A stretch of DNA of 64,000 bases, from IMG/VR virus record IMGVR_UViG_3300008265_000001; one strand, written 5' to 3'. The DNA comes from a virus. This document shows, in pieces, positions 18,415 through 64,000 of this stretch. A program made the position numbers and the translations under genes. The notes beneath the pieces are model-generated. The model was given only the letters and a program-made list of their open reading frames with translations. It did not search any database and was not told the origin of the DNA. How positions within the stretch are numbered: the first letter of the stretch is position 1; the number at the start of each line of letters is the position of its first letter.

Positions 18415-18837
18415 ATGCAACACTTTGCAAACTTTGAGCTAAGCCCAGAGCAAAAAAGAACTGCTGATAGTCTGAACTACCTTAGACAAAATGACCCAGA
18501 AGAATTTAATAGGGTAAAAACTGCTGGGCAAGCCGTCAGAAAAAGAAATCAGAATGTAAATGTGCCGATTATCCAAAAACAAGTAGCTGCTGGCGGAGAT
18601 GCGAAGGAGTTGTTTGCAAATAACCGCCAAAACTACAATCAGACGTTTACGAAAGCTACTAATGCAAATCAAGCGGCTGGGGCTATGGGCAAAATTGGCA
18701 ACACAGCTAAGCGTTGGGGTGGTAAGGTTGCTGGGCTTGGAGGAGCCGCAGTTACAGCCTCGATGCTGCTTCCTATGGCATCTTCCCTGCTTCCTTTTGG
18801 TAAAGGTCAGACTAAAGAAGAAAACCAACCCTATTAG
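18415..18837 (+). CDS. MQHFANF-leader protein with Gly/Ala-rich hydrophobic C-terminus
   Basis: 140 aa, on the opposite strand to its neighbours. A TATAAT-like box lies at ~18378. The N-terminus MQHFANF is shared with 60601, 62157 and 63943. Confidence 0.6.
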   Translation: MQHFANFELSPEQKRTADSLNYLRQNDPEEFNRVKTAGQAVRKRNQNVNVPIIQKQVAAGGDAKELFANNRQNYNQTFTKATNANQAAGAMGKIGNTAKRWGGKVAGLGGAAVTASMLLPMASSLLPFGKGQTKEENQPY

Positions 18838-40246: not shown

Positions 40247-40747
40247 ATGACAGATTATAAGTTCATGAACTCGCCACTCGAAGCGGATTTTGCTATTGGC
40301 AATCTTGACCGTTTACTAACTCGCGCCAAAGCAGATATCAAAACAACCATCGGTGCAGCTAAGGACATCGCTAGCAAAGCAGCATGGAAAGACCCCAAGA
40401 AGAACGCCAGCTACACCGATTTAGGTAAAGGTGCATCTGAAGCCAAGGGTCGTGCCAACAAAGCTCTCAGCGAGAAAAACGCAGCTAACAAAGCGGCAGA
40501 AAGAGAGAAAACTGCCAAGGATACCACTTTGAAATATGTTGAGCCTCGCAAACCCAGAGCAACCGCAGGAGCAGGAACTAGCGACCCCACAAAGGAAATC
40601 GCTGACCGCTACAGAAAAGAAGGTAAGGAGAATTACGAGAAAAATGGGGCGCGAGATTTAAGCCGTGCAAGTGCCGATGGAACGCTCGAACTTGATAAGC
40701 GCTTCAAGACTGGCGAAAAACGTTATGAATCTAATAAATCTAAGTAA
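40247..40747 (+). CDS. Lys/Ala-rich, probably disordered basic protein (opposite-strand island gene)
   Basis: 166 aa. TTAACC-N17-TATAAA lies upstream in the divergent gap 40188-40246. Confidence 0.55.
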   Translation: MTDYKFMNSPLEADFAIGNLDRLLTRAKADIKTTIGAAKDIASKAAWKDPKKNASYTDLGKGASEAKGRANKALSEKNAANKAAEREKTAKDTTLKYVEPRKPRATAGAGTSDPTKEIADRYRKEGKENYEKNGARDLSRASADGTLELDKRFKTGEKRYESNKSK

Positions 40748-57325: not shown

Positions 57326-57766
57326 TTAATCAGGGAAAACAGGAGCTAAACCGTGTTCTATCCAATCATAGCCAGAAACATAATATCCAACTTCATCATC
57401 AGTACGTTGCTCTTGCAATTCTGCCCATGTACCATCTTTATACCAGATAATACATTTTTCAGTATCGTAACCAAGAACCTTTGGAAATTCATTCCTGTAC
57501 CATTCATGAGAATGTCTAGAAAAATCAGTGAATGCAAGATTAGCTTTAAGCTTTTCTAAAGTTTCTTCATTGAGTTCACTGATTTTGACAACAAACCTAC
57601 CACAATCATACCCTTTTGTAGAAATTACAGAATCAGGGTAAGGGAAACAATCTACAGGAACACTGTAAGATAATCTCACAGATAGCACTATTGAAGTAGC
57701 TTCAATACCTTCATCATTAGTTAGAGGGATGTAGATATCTTTCAACAAGCACTTAGTATTTGACAT
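57326..57766 (-). CDS. hypothetical protein
   Basis: 146-aa ORF. Confidence 0.6.
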   Translation of the reverse strand: MSNTKCLLKDIYIPLTNDEGIEATSIVLSVRLSYSVPVDCFPYPDSVISTKGYDCGRFVVKISELNEETLEKLKANLAFTDFSRHSHEWYRNEFPKVLGYDTEKCIIWYKDGTWAELQEQRTDDEVGYYVSGYDWIEHGLAPVFPD

Positions 57767-57926
57767 TTTTCTATCTTGCTAAAAAGCAAGCCGTAAAGGA
57801 TAGAATTTTTTTGGGGGAATTGGAAAAGTTGTATAGGGTAAATAACCCCTATGGGTACTCTACATAATGTTACAAGCTTTCCACTTGTACGGACTAGTGC
57901 TAGTCTTAGCTGTGCTGTCAGCTTAT

Positions 57927-58091
57927 TTATAATCGTTCTAGATGATTGATTGCTATTCTTATATAGCTATTAGCGTACTGTAGACTTTTCTCAGAATCTC
58001 TTTTACAGACATCATTAGGAAATTCGTTAATCTTAAAGTCAATTTCAGATATTAACTTTTCAATTCGCTTTAATTTTTCTAAATTACTCAT
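57927..58091 (-). CDS. small helical protein (54 aa)
   Basis: GGAG SD upstream. MSNLEKLKRIEKLISEIDF... It is flanked by a 27-nt imperfect inverted repeat. Confidence 0.45.
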   Translation of the reverse strand: MSNLEKLKRIEKLISEIDFKINEFPNDVCKRDSEKSLQYANSYIRIAINHLERL

Positions 58092-58326
58092 TGTCTTATC
58101 TCCTATGTTTTCAAGTGATGCCTTACGGTAGTTAGCTTTACAGCACAGTTAGGACTAGACTAGACTTAACCAAGTTACAGTAGCAAGGATAGTAATAGAT
58201 TCTAAAATTGTAGAATCTCTAGCAGTATTACAGCTATATAGCCTATAGCTTGCCTGAACAGTCGTGGTTAAGTAGTTTTTGTCTCAGTTACTTCTTTCCA
58301 TACTCTTTGCTGCGATGTAGTTGATT

Positions 58327-58476
58327 TTACATACTTTGTATCGTATCGTAGTTATCCCAATAATCTTGATTGTATATACCGAATTTATCCGCTAAGTATT
58401 TTGCATACTCTATAGCGGTTTCTAATCTCTCTTGAGCTAATTTTCTGGTTAGTTCAATTCGTTTTTGTTCAGTCAT
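58327..58476 (-). CDS. small protein (49 aa)
   Basis: MTEQKRIELTRKLAQERLETAIEYAKYL... This is the first gene of the minus-strand array. Confidence 0.4.
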   Translation of the reverse strand: MTEQKRIELTRKLAQERLETAIEYAKYLADKFGIYNQDYWDNYDTIQSM

Positions 58477-59826
58477 TATCTTATTTTCCTTATAGTAGCG
58501 AGTGAATTACATCGCAGTAAGGAATACAGAAAGAAGTAACGCGATTATTTAAGGTCATCGCAGTGTTTTGTTATAGCGCCCTAATCAGTATTACAAGCGC
58601 TGATAGTTTCAGTACTCTATCAAACTAACCGCTATCTAAAGATATCTTAAATTACTTTAGAATCATAGCTTTTATGCTTAAGTGTTATATCTTAGTGACT
58701 TGCTATCATCACGACACGCCCTTACAGCCCTTTACAGGCATACAGCATTTTTCAACTGTCGGAATTATGTGTATTCAATTTTCAAGGTACTAGAGATGCG
58801 ACCGCTTGGCTTGCGTCTTACCGCTTGCTTTGCTTATCTCGTATCTCATGTAAATTAAGTTATCAGGTTATCTCTAGAATGTAAAGCCCCCTCGCAGTAT
58901 GTAAACGGATAAAAGTGGTTAAAAGTCTTACAGTGTATAGAGAAAAAAGTTTGAAAATTCTTTTTAGTCCTGCAATTTTCGTATTAACATAATATAGCGT
59001 GTATGTATTTCTATGCTTGTATGTGTATTCGCTAGAGATGTATATATGCTTAGCAGCTACCTCTAGATTGACCTGTAAGACTTGTTTACATACATTCAGG
59101 AGTATTTGTACCCTAGCAATTTTGCTAGTCTTAAAATCGATTTTAGAGCTATGCAACAAATTGCATATAGTAAGTATCGTTAAATAATCATTAGAGTGAA
59201 ACATATATAATAATCTAAAAGGATGAGTGATTTAATATCAATCATCTCAAATGATTATACAGTAGGATATACACGTTATACGGTATCATATAATACAATC
59301 TGATGCTGATATATAAACGAATAAGCTGATATTTGTCTTAGGGAAGTAGATGAGTTAAGAGATAGAATGTGAAGTTTGTGCGAGAGATAGAACGGATTTG
59401 TTCGTGTGCTTCTCGTATATACGAGAATTATACGAGAGAAATAATATGCCCCACTTGCTTCGACTAAGTGTAAATCTGACACTAACATATAGTTGCAACT
59501 GCAATCATCTACACATATACCAACGAGTTTGCGCCATCACAGCATTGTTTGATAGTACTCGAACATTCATACATACAGTGAAATGCACAAAGATTGTCCT
59601 CCAGAAGAAGAAGTAGAAGTATATAGGTTAAGTTTATTCGATTAGCAACTCGACTGTGTAAGGGTTTCAGCCTCAACATCGATTAGCAAAACAGCTTATT
59701 CGATTAGCAAATTCTTCATAACTAACCCAAACAATTATGAAACTGCCCTATTTGATTAGCAACATAATCGCAAAAATACTGCTAACAGGTATGCTAATAT
59801 AATAATAGTAAGCTACTTAAATAAAT
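58477..59826. other. ORF-poor AT-rich divergent control region (candidate early promoters, origin or genome-end region)
   Basis: 1.35 kb with no convincing ORF and many short palindromes and direct repeats. Gene polarity switches here. Confidence 0.6.
59640..59798 (+). repeat. iteron/operator array: 4 direct GATTAGCAA plus 2 inverted ATTAGCA/GTTAGCA cores
   Basis: Direct copies start at 59640, 59681, 59702 and 59754. Inverted copies lie at 59780-59786 and 59792-59798. The array ends 29 nt before the ATG at 59827. Confidence 0.65.
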
Positions 59827-60474
59827 ATGGACGAGACTTCGGCGCTTGTAGCCCAACTAGAAAAAAGCCTGTGGCGTAATCCCACAGATGAAGAAGGGGT
59901 TTTAGGACTTTTCAGTGACTCAGATAAACCATTAGCCAGTGTGCTTCTTGGTGGTGTTGTAAGTATGCAAAAACAACTGTCAGAAATAAAATCCCTGATA
60001 ACAGCTATTGCAAGTAACAAGACCAATTCAGTAACACCCACAGAGCTAGGTATGTTCTTCATCATGGACGCTTACAAGTACCTTATCGAAGACTTTACCC
60101 TTATAGGCGACAAAGTGGCTTACAGGGGAGAAATATGCGGTCAGAGTGATTCGGTAATTTTGCAGTTATCTATACGTCTCGAAGACTTCTTTGGTTCTAA
60201 GGATGTCCACTTTGCAAATCTGTTCAAGGGATTGCGCCGAGCCTTAACCAAACGTGATAACGTGCATCAAGACTATAAATTACTATTGCAGAATGAGTTG
60301 GACGAATACTTCAGCCAACATAAAAAAGCTAAGCGAATTAAGTTCAAGGTCATAGCAGACATCTTCTCTGAACTACCTGATGTCACAGAACAAAAACTAA
60401 AAGTGTGGCTTGAAGAATTGGGATACAATCCTAAACCAGACGTTAACCGAGTATTATGGTACACCAATAAATAA
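59827..60474 (+). CDS. hypothetical protein (first gene of the plus-strand block)
   Basis: 215-aa ORF directly downstream of the iteron array. Confidence 0.65.
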   Translation: MDETSALVAQLEKSLWRNPTDEEGVLGLFSDSDKPLASVLLGGVVSMQKQLSEIKSLITAIASNKTNSVTPTELGMFFIMDAYKYLIEDFTLIGDKVAYRGEICGQSDSVILQLSIRLEDFFGSKDVHFANLFKGLRRALTKRDNVHQDYKLLLQNELDEYFSQHKKAKRIKFKVIADIFSELPDVTEQKLKVWLEELGYNPKPDVNRVLWYTNK

Positions 60475-60600
60475 AAATATGAAAAAGCTAATATTAGCGA
60501 CCCTAAGTAGTAATCCGCAAGTTCTATACCCCGACTCCCGCCTACATAGTCGAGTGCGATACAATAAACATTGGAGACACTTGTTCTAACTAACACCCTT

Positions 60601-61512
60601 ATGCAACACTTCGCAGATTTTAGTAACGCAGCTAGAAAAACATTTACAAGAACAAAACAAGCTACCCTGCTTGGTGGTCTAGGTAATGTCAAGGAAGGTG
60701 CGCCAGTACCTAAAGAACAAAGGCGAACAGTTACAAGAGAAGTGCCTACACCTCCCCCTAAATACAAAGGACTTCTATCCTTCCTTAACCCTAAGAAACC
60801 TGCTACACCTGCAACCTACACAGCAACTGAAAAATTTACACCTGAAAACCCTTTAAATGATAGGATAGGTTATGTAGATGCAATACAAACTGCCAGAAGA
60901 GGTAGTACTAACCCCATAAAATCCAACAGCTATATCGACAGACAGGGTTACATGAACACACCTCAAGATAACACTGTGCTGGCGGGAACCATAGATAAAT
61001 TAAGAAAGACAGCCAGCGTAGACCCTAAAAATGAATATGGAGCTTTATTGTATAAAGATGACCCTAGAGTCACTTTAAAAACCACACCTATAACGGGAGG
61101 TGGTAGTCATTCAATAAAGCTCTATAGTGGAAACACAGAACAAGATAAGAAATCGTTGGTCAATATCCATACTCACCCACCATACGCAAAAACAATTGCA
61201 GGTGTCACACCCTCACCTAGAGATTTTCAAATGGATGCTAATCAAAGATACGATACTCCTAATACAACATCTTTGATTTTAGCAAATAACCCTATAACTG
61301 GTCAAAATCATATCACACAATATAAAACTAGCAAACACCCCTCTTCAAGAATTGCTAAGCATTTAGATGAAAAAATGTATTCAGATGCCAATCACCAAAC
61401 TTATGCTGAGACTGATAGACAGGATTTCCTAAACACTTTTAGAAATTACAGGCAAAATGTCAAAAATCTTGGCGGAGACTATAAAGTAATTAGCAATAAA
61501 ACTAATCAGTAA
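60601..61512 (+). CDS. MQHFADF-leader protein with C-terminal JAB/MPN (RadC-like) metalloprotease-type motif
   Basis: The track start at 60571 is TTG and the ATG is at 60601. The motif is NEYGALLY...NIHTHPPYAKTIAGVTPSPRD, i.e. E...HxH...SxxD. Confidence 0.55.
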   Translation: MQHFADFSNAARKTFTRTKQATLLGGLGNVKEGAPVPKEQRRTVTREVPTPPPKYKGLLSFLNPKKPATPATYTATEKFTPENPLNDRIGYVDAIQTARRGSTNPIKSNSYIDRQGYMNTPQDNTVLAGTIDKLRKTASVDPKNEYGALLYKDDPRVTLKTTPITGGGSHSIKLYSGNTEQDKKSLVNIHTHPPYAKTIAGVTPSPRDFQMDANQRYDTPNTTSLILANNPITGQNHITQYKTSKHPSSRIAKHLDEKMYSDANHQTYAETDRQDFLNTFRNYRQNVKNLGGDYKVISNKTNQ

Positions 61513-61521
61513 TATAAACAA

Positions 61522-61737
61522 ATGAACACTGACGACACCACCACCCCCACTACAACCAAGAAGCCCTCGACCAAGCTGCCTGACATCTTTCCTCCCAAAC
61601 TAACCGACCTCAAAGGACTGACGGGCAAAAAAGCTGACAAGAAGATGCTGAAAAGTATCGCAAAGCCGCCCCTTATGCCCAAGGCGTTGCAAAAGAAAAA
61701 TGCCAGTGCAGAACTCATCGAACGTATTAAAAGTTAG
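61522..61737 (+). CDS. small Lys/Pro/Thr-rich basic protein
   Basis: 71-aa ORF. Confidence 0.5.
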   Translation: MNTDDTTTPTTTKKPSTKLPDIFPPKLTDLKGLTGKKADKKMLKSIAKPPLMPKALQKKNASAELIERIKS

Positions 61738-61785
61738 TGGCAAGCGAATACTGGAACAATAATGACCAACTAGAGGAGTCTATCA

Positions 61786-62133
61786 GTGAATAAGCTCCCA
61801 TTAGAAAAAGAAACGAGAAATAAAGTTGCGAATTTCTTTAAATCTCAAGGTTACGTTGTGCAGATGGAATACAAGACCCCCTACGGTTTTATAGATATCC
61901 TTCTCAAAGAATATAAACCAAGCGGTGAAGTCATTTATCACCTAATTGAATGTAAAAGAAAAAATGACAGCACAGCCATCAAAAATAGTATAGGACAACT
62001 CATCTGCTACGCTAAGCACTTCCCTAAATCTCAAGTGCAATTATATTTTTGCACCAGTTGTAAAAAACCTCTGTCTCAGGAATCACTCAGAATAATGCAA
62101 GCAAACCCCGACATCCTCTATAAGGTATTCTAG
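61786..62133 (+). CDS. minimal Mrr-cat / PD-(D/E)XK nuclease-like protein, paralog 1
   Basis: GTG start with a GAGGAG SD. GFIDILLKEY...HLIECKR...GQL..YA....LYFCTS. About 50% identical by eye to 63006-63362. Confidence 0.6.
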   Translation: MNKLPLEKETRNKVANFFKSQGYVVQMEYKTPYGFIDILLKEYKPSGEVIYHLIECKRKNDSTAIKNSIGQLICYAKHFPKSQVQLYFCTSCKKPLSQESLRIMQANPDILYKVF

Positions 62134-62156
62134 TAATATACAGAATAAATAAAATC

Positions 62157-62903
62157 ATGCAACATTTTGCCAATTTTATCCGCCTCAGTGACAAGAACAT
62201 CAATGCAGCCCGAAAGAAAATCACAGAGTTGCAACCTAACGGCTGGACAGAACTAAGCGGCTTCAAATCCGACAACACACCATCAGCACTGAAGCTACAC
62301 GATACACTTCAGCATAGGCTCATTGACAAACCCATATTCAAAGCAGCAACAGGCATAGACCCCAATACACTATTTCCTAGTGGCTCACCTCAACAAGCTA
62401 CCAAGATGATGCCGCTAGTTCAACAATCTCCCAGCATTTCAAGAGACAGGCGCAATGTCCTTAACGAAACTATCGAGAAGATGGTAGATGTAGGTACTTT
62501 CCCCAGCTACCGCAGCAGATTACCCGTAGATACTATGGAGTTACTACCTAACACCAAGTTCGACGCTGTGATGCCTTACATACGCAAGAAAGCTAAGCCA
62601 GCAGATAGGTTAGCTGCTGAGGCTATTAGCATGACATTCCTACCAACCAGCAGCAATGAAGAGTTTCGCAACATCTATCTCGACACAGCACAACGCGATA
62701 GCAGAATACGTGCAGCAATGAAAGAGCGACTACCCAAACTAGCGACCGAGAAATTGCAGCCTAATGCCAGTGCTGGTCAACGCTTAAGGGCTAAGCTCGA
62801 AGACAGAAAAAATTACAGCAAGCAATTTGACTGGACTAGAGACTTGAGCGCAAGGGAAGACCGACTCAACCAATATAGACAAACAGGACTAATGCCAAGA
62901 TGA
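62157..62903 (+). CDS. MQHFANF-leader protein
   Basis: 248-aa ORF. The N-terminus is MQHFANF...NINAARKKI. Confidence 0.6.
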   Translation: MQHFANFIRLSDKNINAARKKITELQPNGWTELSGFKSDNTPSALKLHDTLQHRLIDKPIFKAATGIDPNTLFPSGSPQQATKMMPLVQQSPSISRDRRNVLNETIEKMVDVGTFPSYRSRLPVDTMELLPNTKFDAVMPYIRKKAKPADRLAAEAISMTFLPTSSNEEFRNIYLDTAQRDSRIRAAMKERLPKLATEKLQPNASAGQRLRAKLEDRKNYSKQFDWTRDLSAREDRLNQYRQTGLMPR

Positions 62904-63016
62904 TGCACTTTACTTCTTTTCTGCCAACGAACGTAGTGAGTGACTTCAGCAACAGCGCTCGTAAGTCATTCACACGACAAAAGCAAGCCACACTACTTGG
63001 TCAAAATGTCAAGTAA
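62900..63016 (+). CDS. 38-aa mini-ORF: interrupted or truncated MQHF leader
   Basis: MMHFTSFLPTNVVSDFSNSARKSFTRQKQATLLGQNVK. Its tail matches residues 6-24 of the 60601 protein. It has an ATGA overlap upstream and overlaps the next start. Confidence 0.35.
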   Translation: MMHFTSFLPTNVVSDFSNSARKSFTRQKQATLLGQNVK

Positions 63017-63362
63017 AAAAACTAAAGTCCCCCTCGAAAAAGTTACCAGAGAGAAAGTGGCGAGTTTCATGAGAGCAAGCGGATTTGTTGTCCAACAAGA
63101 AGTGGTCGTGCCAACTGGTCGTATCGATATTTTGGTCAAAGAGTACAAACCAAACGGGGAAATTACCAACTACATTATCGAGTGTAAACGTTATGGAGAC
63201 AGCAATTCAATCAAAAATGCAGTGGGTCAGTTGAGAACTTACGCCACCCACTATGGTAAAAATACTAAATTGTATATATGTACCAGCGACCCCACACCCT
63301 TAAACAAGGAAGCCCGAAAAGTTCTATCTTTGAATCCCGATATCCTCTACAAAGTATTCTAA
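63006..63362 (+). CDS. minimal Mrr-cat / PD-(D/E)XK nuclease-like protein, paralog 2
   Basis: The ATG at 63006 (MSSKKTKVPLEK) aligns with the paralog 1 start. GRIDILVKEY...YIIECKR. The C-terminus NPDILYKVF is identical in both. Confidence 0.6.
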   Translation: MSSKKTKVPLEKVTREKVASFMRASGFVVQQEVVVPTGRIDILVKEYKPNGEITNYIIECKRYGDSNSIKNAVGQLRTYATHYGKNTKLYICTSDPTPLNKEARKVLSLNPDILYKVF

Positions 63363-63366
63363 CTAT

Positions 63367-64000
63367 ATGAACACTTCCTCATTCGCTCGTATCCGTAACG
63401 CCAAAGCACTTCTCCTCACATCAGACAAGCGTGTAATGCACTTCCCTGCCACAAACAAGGTACGCATCGACAACATACTTCCTGACAATCCCAACTATAA
63501 AGCAGCAGCCAGACGCGCCAGCGTGAAAGAATATGAGAACGCAAGTAAAGCAGCCTCTACGACAGGGTTAGTTCCACCAGTGCAAAACTACCGTGAACGA
63601 GGGAACATGACCTCCTACACGCAAGACTATGCTGGTAAGCCATTACCTGACAAACTAGAAGGAATCTCACCAAAGGAACAATATAAAATTGGTAGTCAAG
63701 TAGGGCGTATGCAAAATCGCCTATACGAGAAAGGTATGGGTCACATGGATATACATGAAGGCAATGTAGTTAGACCAAACCCAAATAAAAAACAACTAAA
63801 ATTGGTGGATAATGCTTCAGTAAGACCTATTGAAGTTGAATATGATACAGGCGAGATGAAAAATCCATACTCTCGTCACTGGTTGGGTAAGCCATTTATG
63901 ACAGGCTATAATAGCAGAATAAACTTTTCGCAACATAAACAGATGCAACATTTCGCTCACTTCGGTTCGCAGGATGCAAATTTCGCACCATTTACAGTAA
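63367..64000 (+). CDS. protein with kinase-like catalytic-loop motif and an internal MQHFAHF (partial, runs off the window)
   Basis: Frame open from the ATG at 63367 to the window end. GMGHMDIHEGNVV...KLVDNAS resembles the HxDxxxxN...D of protein-kinase-like folds. MQHFAHF lies in frame at 63943. Confidence 0.5.
   Translation, partial: MNTSSFARIRNAKALLLTSDKRVMHFPATNKVRIDNILPDNPNYKAAARRASVKEYENASKAASTTGLVPPVQNYRERGNMTSYTQDYAGKPLPDKLEGISPKEQYKIGSQVGRMQNRLYEKGMGHMDIHEGNVVRPNPNKKQLKLVDNASVRPIEVEYDTGEMKNPYSRHWLGKPFMTGYNSRINFSQHKQMQHFAHFGSQDANFAPFTV

Follow-up and report, generated by a model that had tools for sequence, protein, structure and literature searches.

A heptapeptide common to unrelated proteins of Pam2-like cyanosiphophages, most of them virion-detected in Pam2, as a candidate docking motif in a shuffling gene cassette

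The stretch of DNA analysed here, a window of 64,000 nucleotides from virus record IMGVR_UViG_3300008265_000001, belongs to a Pseudanabaena siphophage related to Pam2 (ON014754, 142.9 kb) and PA-SR01 (MT234670), at a nucleotide identity of ~82% that is patchy, and its right end is occupied by a cassette of plus-strand open reading frames (ORFs) designated A to H (Table 1). Proteins of this cassette that are otherwise unrelated share a heptapeptide, (M)QHF[A/T]xF, hereafter the tag, and in Pam2, a siphovirus with a head of ~100 nm (PMC9382816) in which the counterpart of the window lies at roughly 81-142 kb, the proteins that carry the tag are with a single exception found in purified particles. 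We lean, by a modest measure, towards reading the cassette as a shuffling locus of tag-recruited virion proteins, with the heptapeptide as the docking motif that recruits them.

The evidence that carries this reading is the overlap between tag and proteome. Mass spectrometry of purified Pam2 particles detected 27 of 191 coding sequences (CDSs) (Supplementary Table 2 of PMC9382816). The strict Pam2 motif, xHF[ATSV][NDHS]F, occurs in gp37, gp39, gp41, gp42, gp44, gp46, gp118, gp186, gp187 and gp189, and nine of these ten are virion-detected against 18 of the 181 others (Fisher p = 5.5e-8, a test that overstates independence because the tagged genes are partly paralogous, as with gp41/gp44 and gp42/gp187). 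Loosening the motif so that it takes in the 55-aa gp52 gives 9/11 detected (p = 2.8e-7). Outside the structural block, all four tagged proteins were detected as opposed to 2 of 117 untagged ones (p = 1.8e-6), and not one of the 115 undetected proteins there carries the motif. When only the 15 forward-strand genes of gp71-191 are compared, the counts are 4/4 tagged versus 1/11 untagged (hypergeometric p ~0.004, calculated by hand). Within the Pam2 version of the cassette, tagged gp186 (orthologue of gene E), gp187 and gp189 (orthologue of gene H) score '+'; the homologues of gene A (gp183) and gene C (gp185), the GIY-YIG gene and the nuclease gp188 do not (PMC9382816).

Five copies of the tag occur in the window: at the starts of B, E and F, inside H, and at the start of a further ORF at 18415-18837. 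A first-pass annotation, made from the letters of the window, had picked out a shared MQHF leader, which does exist, and had missed the copy within H (63943-63963) and that of the 18415-18837 ORF. The window has 5 six-frame matches, where dinucleotide shuffles average 0.92 and never exceed 4; Pam2 has 14, with a shuffle mean of 2.06 and a maximum of 5. Since synonymous codons differ between copies, the motif is conserved at the level of the peptide. A signal acting in RNA or DNA, such as a translation-initiation element, was rejected on account of this codon variation and of the internal and C-terminal copies, and a clamp-binding or PIP-like motif on account of its spacing, which is QL[SD]LF or QxxLxxFF in known cases and does not fit here. 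Most bearers have the tag at the N-terminus; in gp189/H and gp118 it lies internally, and in gp46 it forms the last seven residues. This last protein (ON014754 48276-48671; 131 aa, highly basic, of low complexity and present in virions) ends in ...FQHFANF and provides the only C-terminal tag seen. The bodies to which the tag is joined are unrelated and of at least five types, with C-terminal domains swapped between two loci, one such domain being common to gp42 and gp187 and another to gp41 and gp44; all tagged proteins have a pI of 9.8-10.1 and lack cysteine. In the AlphaFold2 (AF2) model of gene B, residues 2-23 are helical, an arrangement in which H3, F4 and F7 would share one face.

An exact-pattern scan of 2.9 million IMG/VR contigs returned the motif almost only from contigs of ~140-146 kb belonging to this clade, with several copies per contig and at least five protein types; some ten other matches in short ORFs look like chance. 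Distant homologues of gene B begin instead with MYLLVDF or MYLMCDF, and there unrelated neighbouring genes next to the terminase share the leader (MYILADF, MIYLLVDF). A leader that differs by lineage and is common within a genome is what would be expected of a signal co-evolving with its receptor. In this distant lineage, tandem JAB-like genes, one of them devoid of the metal site, adjoin an HU-like gene and the terminase (L009 7-4318; L011 4361-11612). The tag goes unmentioned in the papers on Pam2 and PA-SR01, and searching full texts for the motif string turned up nothing.

Two isolated genes of the window also touch on the tag. The ORF at 18415-18837 is a lone plus-strand gene amid minus-strand replication genes and shows 38% identity to residues 55-213 of gp118; Pam2 gp118, which is detected in virions, is extended at its N-terminus by a segment in which the tag occurs a second time. 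A 129-aa minus-strand ORF overlapping 18415-18837 is probably spurious. Another isolated plus-strand gene, at 40247-40747 (166 aa), has 89% identity to Pam2 gp146, a protein detected in virions despite having no strict tag. An 'ADF' element in its N-terminus (MTDYKFMNSPLEADFAIG) recalls that following the tag in gp41, gp187 and P0011, and judged from this likeness may be a degenerate tag.

Gene H consists of a kinase-like domain (aa 1-192), the internal tag MQHFAHF (aa 193-199) and a glycine-zipper tail. The protein-kinase-like catalytic loop that the first-pass annotation proposed is borne out: H126-x-D128-x4-N133 and D148 are invariant in 44 homologues, as are M193, H195, F196 and F199 of the tag; the sequence after the tag is highly variable. 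Direct profile matches are without exception to kinase-like families and all fall below threshold, namely ABC1 in 23 of the 44 members (best 0.007), RIO1 (0.0015) and Bud32 (0.013), with further weak matches to Kdo, Pkinase and LanKC. A profile of the N-terminal domain searched against 1.84 billion representatives does reach genuine kinases, P0102 (Pkinase 2e-9) and P0111 (Pkinase 8e-45), along with P0097 (Kdo), P0108 (APH) and P0100 (Kdo plus Gly-zipper), the last combining kinase and glycine zipper as gene H does. The catalytic loop aligns to those of TBK1 and SalKC; in a sequence search of the Protein Data Bank (PDB) with gene H nothing was significant, and this alignment to kinases was the sole useful output. 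The AF2 model of the full-length protein has a predicted local distance difference test (pLDDT) score of 40 and is unusable, with an order of secondary-structure elements that is kinase-compatible at low confidence. Taken together with its sequence, aa 1-192 are an atypical, predicted protein-kinase-like domain. It resembles Bud32, RIO, ABC1/UbiB and Kdo/WaaP in the HxDxxxxN loop and the downstream D, and differs from them in being only ~190 residues long, in scoring below every curated cutoff and in its fusion to tag and glycine zipper. A functional analogue is the kinase gp0.7 of T7, which is made after infection; unlike gp0.7, the orthologue of H is detected in virions, those of Pam2. The label that the Pam2 authors drew from HHpred for this orthologue was 'casein kinase I homolog', at a probability of 0.94 (PMC9382816).

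The C-terminal third of H matches glycine-zipper families and has the conserved core G-x-G-E-[TS]-E-E-E-[KR]-A-N-T-T-x-L-G-R-x-G-K; P0075 contains two glycine-zipper repeats. In two relatives, a stand-alone glycine-zipper gene without kinase domain begins exactly at MQHFTHF (L017 4262-4696 and L018 2304-2777; 144 and 157 aa, respectively). As the module stands alone there and starts at the tag, we read H as a fusion that has placed a kinase domain ahead of a tagged module. The stand-alone version also makes it plausible that translation starts internally in H and gives rise to a separate tagged glycine-zipper protein.

In gene B the tag, here MQHFADF, precedes a JAB/MPN+ (JAMM) metallopeptidase domain. 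Across 13 homologues there is little or no variation at E145, H190-x-H192-P193 and P204-S205-x-x-D208, and the zinc motif E145, H190, H192, S205 and D208 is at least 90% conserved among them, being lost in a sole exception, P0013. The AF2 model (pLDDT 68, core blocks 77-90) was compared with the PDB using Foldseek, and the best 50 matches are all MPN/JAB1 proteins or complexes containing them (E = 2e-4 to 6e-3), including Prp8 Jab1, AMSH/Sst2, Rpn11, BRCC36 and CSN5; the best fold matches in a viral library include entries named 'Minor capsid protein' and 'JAB domain-containing protein'. A sequence search of the PDB with gene B gave nothing significant, and at the level of families the matches are sub-threshold (DUF4329 in 6/13 members, Prok-JAB in 3/13, RadC in 1/13; gene B itself reaches 15 bits on DUF4329, whose cutoff is 28.6). 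Because no curated Pfam threshold is passed, gene B is filed as JAB-superfamily and not as RadC, so that the first-pass description of a JAB/MPN RadC-like metal site survives in its first half and loses its second. By motif and model, gene B is a predicted JAB/MPN+ metallopeptidase. It shares the MPN fold and the E...HxH...SxxD zinc site with the JAMM families (Prok-JAB, RadC-like JAB, DUF4329), and is set apart from them in that no member of its family reaches a Pfam gathering score, in the extra virion tag with ~120 residues of unassigned N-terminal sequence, and in the spacer between HxH and S, which counts 11 residues, and more in some homologues, where ~7 is usual for JAMM proteins.

ORF F, which was not called by gene finders, is 81% identical to the N-terminus of gene B over 21 aa and aligns with the N-termini of P0011 and P0012, and its start overlaps the stop of gene E (ATGA), as that of gp187 does in Pam2. 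By these alignments F, rightly taken for a leader remnant at first pass, is the apparent 5' stump of a second tagged JAB gene of gp37/P0011 type, located in the slot that holds gp187 in Pam2.

The two nucleases of the cassette, D and G, bear no tag. Gene D matches PDDEXK_9 (E = 1e-7; 32.3 bits against a gathering cutoff of 25.5), and gene G matches both PDDEXK_9 (E = 3.9e-9; 36.9 bits against 25.5) and Mrr_cat (E = 5.4e-8; 33.4 bits against 21). The catalytic residues are E7, D37 and E55-x-K57 in D and E11, D41 and E59-x-K61 in G, and these columns are invariant in 18 sequences (56-93% identity), a conservation test of limited depth because all 18 homologues come from one phage clade, the only one in which the family was found. 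The Mrr-cat/PD-(D/E)XK core that had been proposed for both proteins is therefore upheld: profile searches place them in nuclease families and the E, D and ExK residues are conserved. The remark that a stand-alone 115-aa Mrr-cat domain is unusual has to be dropped, as stand-alone nucleases of ~120 aa within the PD-(D/E)XK superfamily (Hjc and YraN/UPF0102 types) are nothing out of the ordinary. D and G are like the minimal Mrr_cat/PDDEXK_9 nucleases in their gathering-level scores and in E, D and ExK; they differ in lacking both a DNA-recognition domain and a methyltransferase partner and in having no sequence relative in the PDB, where a search with the nuclease profile gave nothing significant. 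No methyltransferase is encoded in the cassette or the syntenic loci, and D and G, single-domain proteins of 115-118 aa, are by their predicted domain content not restriction endonucleases in the strict sense. One homologue bears the JGI name 'Holliday junction resolvase-like predicted endonuclease'. Database names such as 'restriction endonuclease' and, for H, 'casein kinase I-like' overstate present knowledge. Candidate roles for the nuclease are junction resolution, degradation of host DNA and help in packaging, and the sole clue is its tight linkage to gene C and to the kinase/glycine-zipper gene. No defence or toxin-antitoxin family was found in the cassette by PADLOC beyond a weak PD-(D/E)XK match, and NCBIfam returned only sub-threshold matches to NucS and Bud32.

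D and G had been described as paralogues of about 50% identity. They do share the identical C-terminus NPDILYKVF, and their identity is 56%, which makes them as distant as any two orthologues of the family. D is nearest to P0094 (77%) and G to P0078 (92%), members of different allelic clades, and a DNA repeat search found nothing beyond short chance matches to join the two nuclease units. From these comparisons D and G are probably two diverged alleles stacked by recombination between related phages, not the products of a recent duplication.

The gene orders of six relatives bear on the same point. Their conserved core consists of A, C, the nuclease and the kinase, with variable genes inserted around it; upstream of the nuclease there is always the 71-aa protein (C) or a variable insert, and downstream of it the kinase or glycine-zipper gene, and MQHF-leader genes come and go. 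In L002 and L003 the order is C-nuclease-kinase, with no MQHF-leader gene upstream of the nuclease; in L004 it is E-C-nuclease-kinase; in Pam2, which has one nuclease, C-E-gp187-nuclease-kinase; in PA-SR01, C-E, a 121-aa tagged gene (MKHFANF), a 46-aa tagged and unannotated gene, nuclease and kinase; and in L017 and L018, C-GIY-YIG-E-nuclease followed by the tagged glycine-zipper protein that has no kinase domain. The 46-aa ORF of PA-SR01 (L005 4484-4624), with its MQHFANF start, separates the 121-aa gene from the nuclease. From relative to relative, a different tagged gene fills the slot between E and the nuclease. Against this background B-C-D-E-F-G-H reads as a 'C-nuclease' and an 'E-x-nuclease-kinase' arrangement joined together, the outcome expected of recombination between diverged relatives. 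Since the gene series 215-303-71-115-248-118-367 is called by independent gene callers on at least 24 public contigs, an artefact of assembly can be dismissed. We take the cassette for an accessory locus that shuffles fast and is situated immediately ahead of the terminase and structural genes.

The mechanism that we propose divides the cassette into two classes. The untagged class would comprise A, C and the small nuclease (alleles D and G), whose Pam2 homologues are not virion-detected; the tagged class would comprise B, E, the dead remnant F and H with its kinase-like domain placed before the tagged glycine-zipper module. The heptapeptide would be a short docking motif, with H and the two F on one helix face, that causes incorporation into the virion by recruiting otherwise unrelated, basic, cysteine-free proteins. 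The location would be the capsid interior, from which the tagged proteins would enter the host together with the DNA, the glycine zipper then acting at the membrane and kinase and peptidase on host targets. Capsid interior and delivery are favoured because of the analogy with T4 and the P1 protein DarB (see below) and because the bearers are basic, enzyme-rich and membrane-active. Several points weigh against this proposal. The proteomic evidence concerns Pam2 and not the phage of the window, and consists of a yes/no column devoid of peptide, copy-number or head-versus-tail information. Pam2 gp37, the homologue of gene B, was not detected (PMC9382816), so the packaging of gene B is deduced from its tag alone. 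Five of the tagged Pam2 genes are located amid tail-fibre genes, a position as compatible with an external tail site as with the capsid. The kinase fold of H is a matter of sequence given its unusable model, and targeting sequences of T4 type are N-terminal and cleaved and are not known in internal or C-terminal positions.

The main rival holds that the tag anchors its bearers to the outside of the virion, be it tail, baseplate or head surface, so that these would be structural or adsorption components and not cargo. Here gp39, gp41, gp42, gp44 and gp46 count in its favour, being interleaved with tail-fibre and tail genes, and so do the common extended N-terminus (HFANFGYVKQANKQLKRL) and different C-termini of gp41, gp42 and gp44, which recall interchangeable fibre modules; tail fibres and tailspikes have conserved N-terminal anchors, and the tail protein K of lambda carries a JAB domain. 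However, several of the bearers are enzymes or membrane-type modules, or highly basic and of low complexity, a composition that fits internal or ejected proteins better; the tag is also found internally and at a C-terminus; and the large Pam2 tail proteins gp36, gp43 and gp45 went undetected where small tagged ones were detected, which suggests that the tagged proteins are fairly abundant. On balance we judge external anchoring unlikely, though the strongest of the alternatives. Somewhat more doubtful again is the idea that the motif has no role in incorporation and instead marks a site of proteolysis or processing, acts as a signal for chaperones or in assembly, or is an N-terminal module that was just inherited, and that its association with virion detection reflects the late, abundant expression of one family. 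The partial paralogy of the tagged genes would agree with this, as would the qualitative nature of the mass spectrometry and the position of all tagged genes on the forward strand with the structural genes. Yet among the forward-strand genes of gp71-191 detection still follows the tag (4/4 versus 1/11; p = 0.004), within the putative operon gp183-189 the tagged proteins alone are detected, no fewer than five unrelated bodies occur among the bearers of the tag, and a distant lineage shares a different leader.

Quite improbable, in our estimate, is the explanation favoured at first pass, in which the cassette is a duplicated unit of 'leader protein plus small nuclease' that serves in toxin-immunity or host takeover, the leader protein controlling or partnering the nuclease. 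It is true that in the window a tagged gene (B, or E with remnant F) lies upstream of each nuclease, and that the nuclease catalytic residues are intact. The pairing is not conserved, however: L002 and L003 have no upstream tagged gene, in L004 the E-like gene precedes C, Pam2 combines a single nuclease with two tagged genes, and partner adjacency is likewise not kept in PA-SR01 or L017. B and E are unrelated apart from the leader, D and G belong to different clades at 56% identity with no shared DNA repeat, no toxin-antitoxin or defence family is matched, and Pam2 virions yielded the tagged proteins but no nuclease. Neither the duplicated two-gene unit nor the toxin-immunity-like module can thus be kept. 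The first-pass idea of host takeover or anti-defence is possible by way of virion delivery, a route other than the one then put forward.

Peptides that target proteins to capsids are known from T4 and P1; the present tag departs from these in sequence and cargo, in the type of host and phage concerned and in the freedom with which it is positioned, and the enzyme family calls on their own are ordinary. The T4 capsid-targeting sequence (CTS) measures ~10 residues and is of the MKTYQEFIAE type. Cargo-loading peptides of encapsulins are likewise short, sit at either end of the cargo and dock inside an HK97-fold shell. The tag resembles the T4 CTS of IPI-III and Alt in being a short peptide common to unrelated, basic, fast-evolving virion proteins encoded at hyperplastic loci, and here, as in T4, a peptide is shared by unrelated proteins and its bearers are in virions (by the Pam2 proteomics). 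It differs in that the sequences are unrelated, the tag being (M)QHFAxF, in that the T4 CTS is confined to the N-terminus and removed by the prohead protease, where the tag also occurs internally (H/gp189, gp118) and C-terminally (gp46), and in that the host here is a cyanobacterium and the phage a siphovirus. Flexible placement is the feature shared with the encapsulin peptides, which are not viral and show no sequence similarity to the tag. The internal proteins of T4 are injected counter-defence proteins (PMC3012670), and in the Dar system of P1 an N-terminal signal recruits large enzymatic cargo into the capsid for delivery with the DNA against host defence (PMC9024508). The DarB signal, longer than 9 and at most 30 residues, follows no consensus among Dar proteins (PMC9024508), in contrast to the tag with its clear consensus in many proteins. 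A broader proposal, which we put forward tentatively and consider rather less probable than docking as such, is that large freshwater cyanosiphophages load their capsids through a position-independent (M)QHFAxF (MYLLVDF in a sister lineage) with kinase, JAB and glycine-zipper effectors that would be injected for takeover or counter-defence.

The coordinates of the cassette and of the associated features are collected in Table 1. All eight plus-strand ORFs listed at first pass were recovered in place.

Table 1. Features of the cassette and related features of the window (positions within the 64,000-nucleotide window).
Feature	Position	Strand	Description
Repeat cluster, four GATTAGCAA (TTATTCGATTAGCAA-type)	59631-59762	+	just upstream of gene A
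Gene A	59827-60474	+	215 aa, acidic (pI 5.7), untagged; positional homologue of Pam2 gp183
Gene B	60601-61512 (ORF 60571-61512)	+	303 aa from MQHF start; predicted JAB/MPN+; homologue of Pam2 gp37
Gene C	61522-61737	+	71 aa, Lys-rich, pI 10.1, untagged
Gene D	61786-62133	+	115 aa, GTG start; predicted minimal PD-(D/E)XK nuclease, P0094-type allele
Gene E	62157-62903	+	248 aa, basic, tag MQHFANF at N-terminus; orthologue of Pam2 gp186
ORF F	62900-63016	+	38 aa, start MMHFTSF; apparent remnant of tagged JAB gene
Gene G	63006-63362 (ORF opens 62940)	+	118 aa; predicted PD-(D/E)XK/Mrr-cat nuclease, P0078-type allele
Gene H	63367-64000, runs off window	+	full length 367 aa (P0014), ~470 nt further; orthologue of Pam2 gp189
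Further tagged gene	18415-18837	+	140 aa, MQHFANF start, Gly/Ala-rich C-terminus; homologue of Pam2 gp118

The cassette follows an AT-rich, gene-free stretch of ~1.3 kb (GC 0.346) at which the coding strand switches from minus to plus. The four copies of GATTAGCAA at the end of this region (two of them as TTATTCGATTAGCAA) fall within ~130 bp and are the sole copies in the 64-kb window (0.91 expected); a DNA repeat search returned the same cluster as repeat families D1 and D6. The element is kept in other contigs of the same phage and is absent, by exact match, from Pam2 and PA-SR01. Judged from its sequence and place, the cluster may be a promoter or operator of the cassette. A promoter and terminator scan gave background level only, and an Rfam scan of 57500-64000 gave no match. 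Just past the window end, two minus-strand genes are followed by the large terminase. The terminase of the window phage (L013/L014 10207-12321, ~2.2 kb past the window) is 704 aa long with Intein_splicing/Hint matches, compared with 561 aa for Pam2 TerL, which suggests that it carries a putative intein insertion.

For the remaining proteins of the cassette family searches gave little. Genes A and E match no Pfam, PHROG or NCBIfam family (nor, for gene A, a PADLOC family), gene C belongs to no recognisable family, and PHROGs offered no usable family for any of the eight cassette proteins. Gene A is 28% identical to Pam2 gp183. Gene C, noted at first pass as a basic 71-aa protein and confirmed as such, is 85% identical to gp185 and is a conserved core gene that normally lies directly upstream of the nuclease, the adjacency being found in L002, L003 and L004. 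Gene E is 81% identical to gp186, and its family (62157-62903 in the window; gp186; L005 3335-4114; L017 3070-3828) has a second conserved terminal motif, a common C-terminal ...GLMPR, despite overall identities of 40-80%. Size was the sole ground on which the PA-SR01 paper attributed a 28-kDa virion band to ORF9 (PMC10286775); the E-like tagged protein of PA-SR01 (259 aa, estimated ~29 kDa) fits this band equally well.

At the level of the locus, the reading is corrected from a duplicated toxin module to two nucleases that are probably stacked alleles in a recombination hot spot. If the docking motif is real, virion proteins, and possibly injected ones, would be readable from sequence across a bloom-associated cyanophage clade in which ~90% of genes are 'hypothetical', and the heptapeptide would offer a means, very short in itself, of getting foreign proteins into cyanophage particles. 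A kinase and a metallopeptidase would then be examples of enzymes that a siphovirus can bring into its host, and, should capsid loading and injection both hold, this would amount to delivery of the T4 internal-protein or P1 Dar type in a siphovirus, with a tag placed as flexibly as those of encapsulin cargo.

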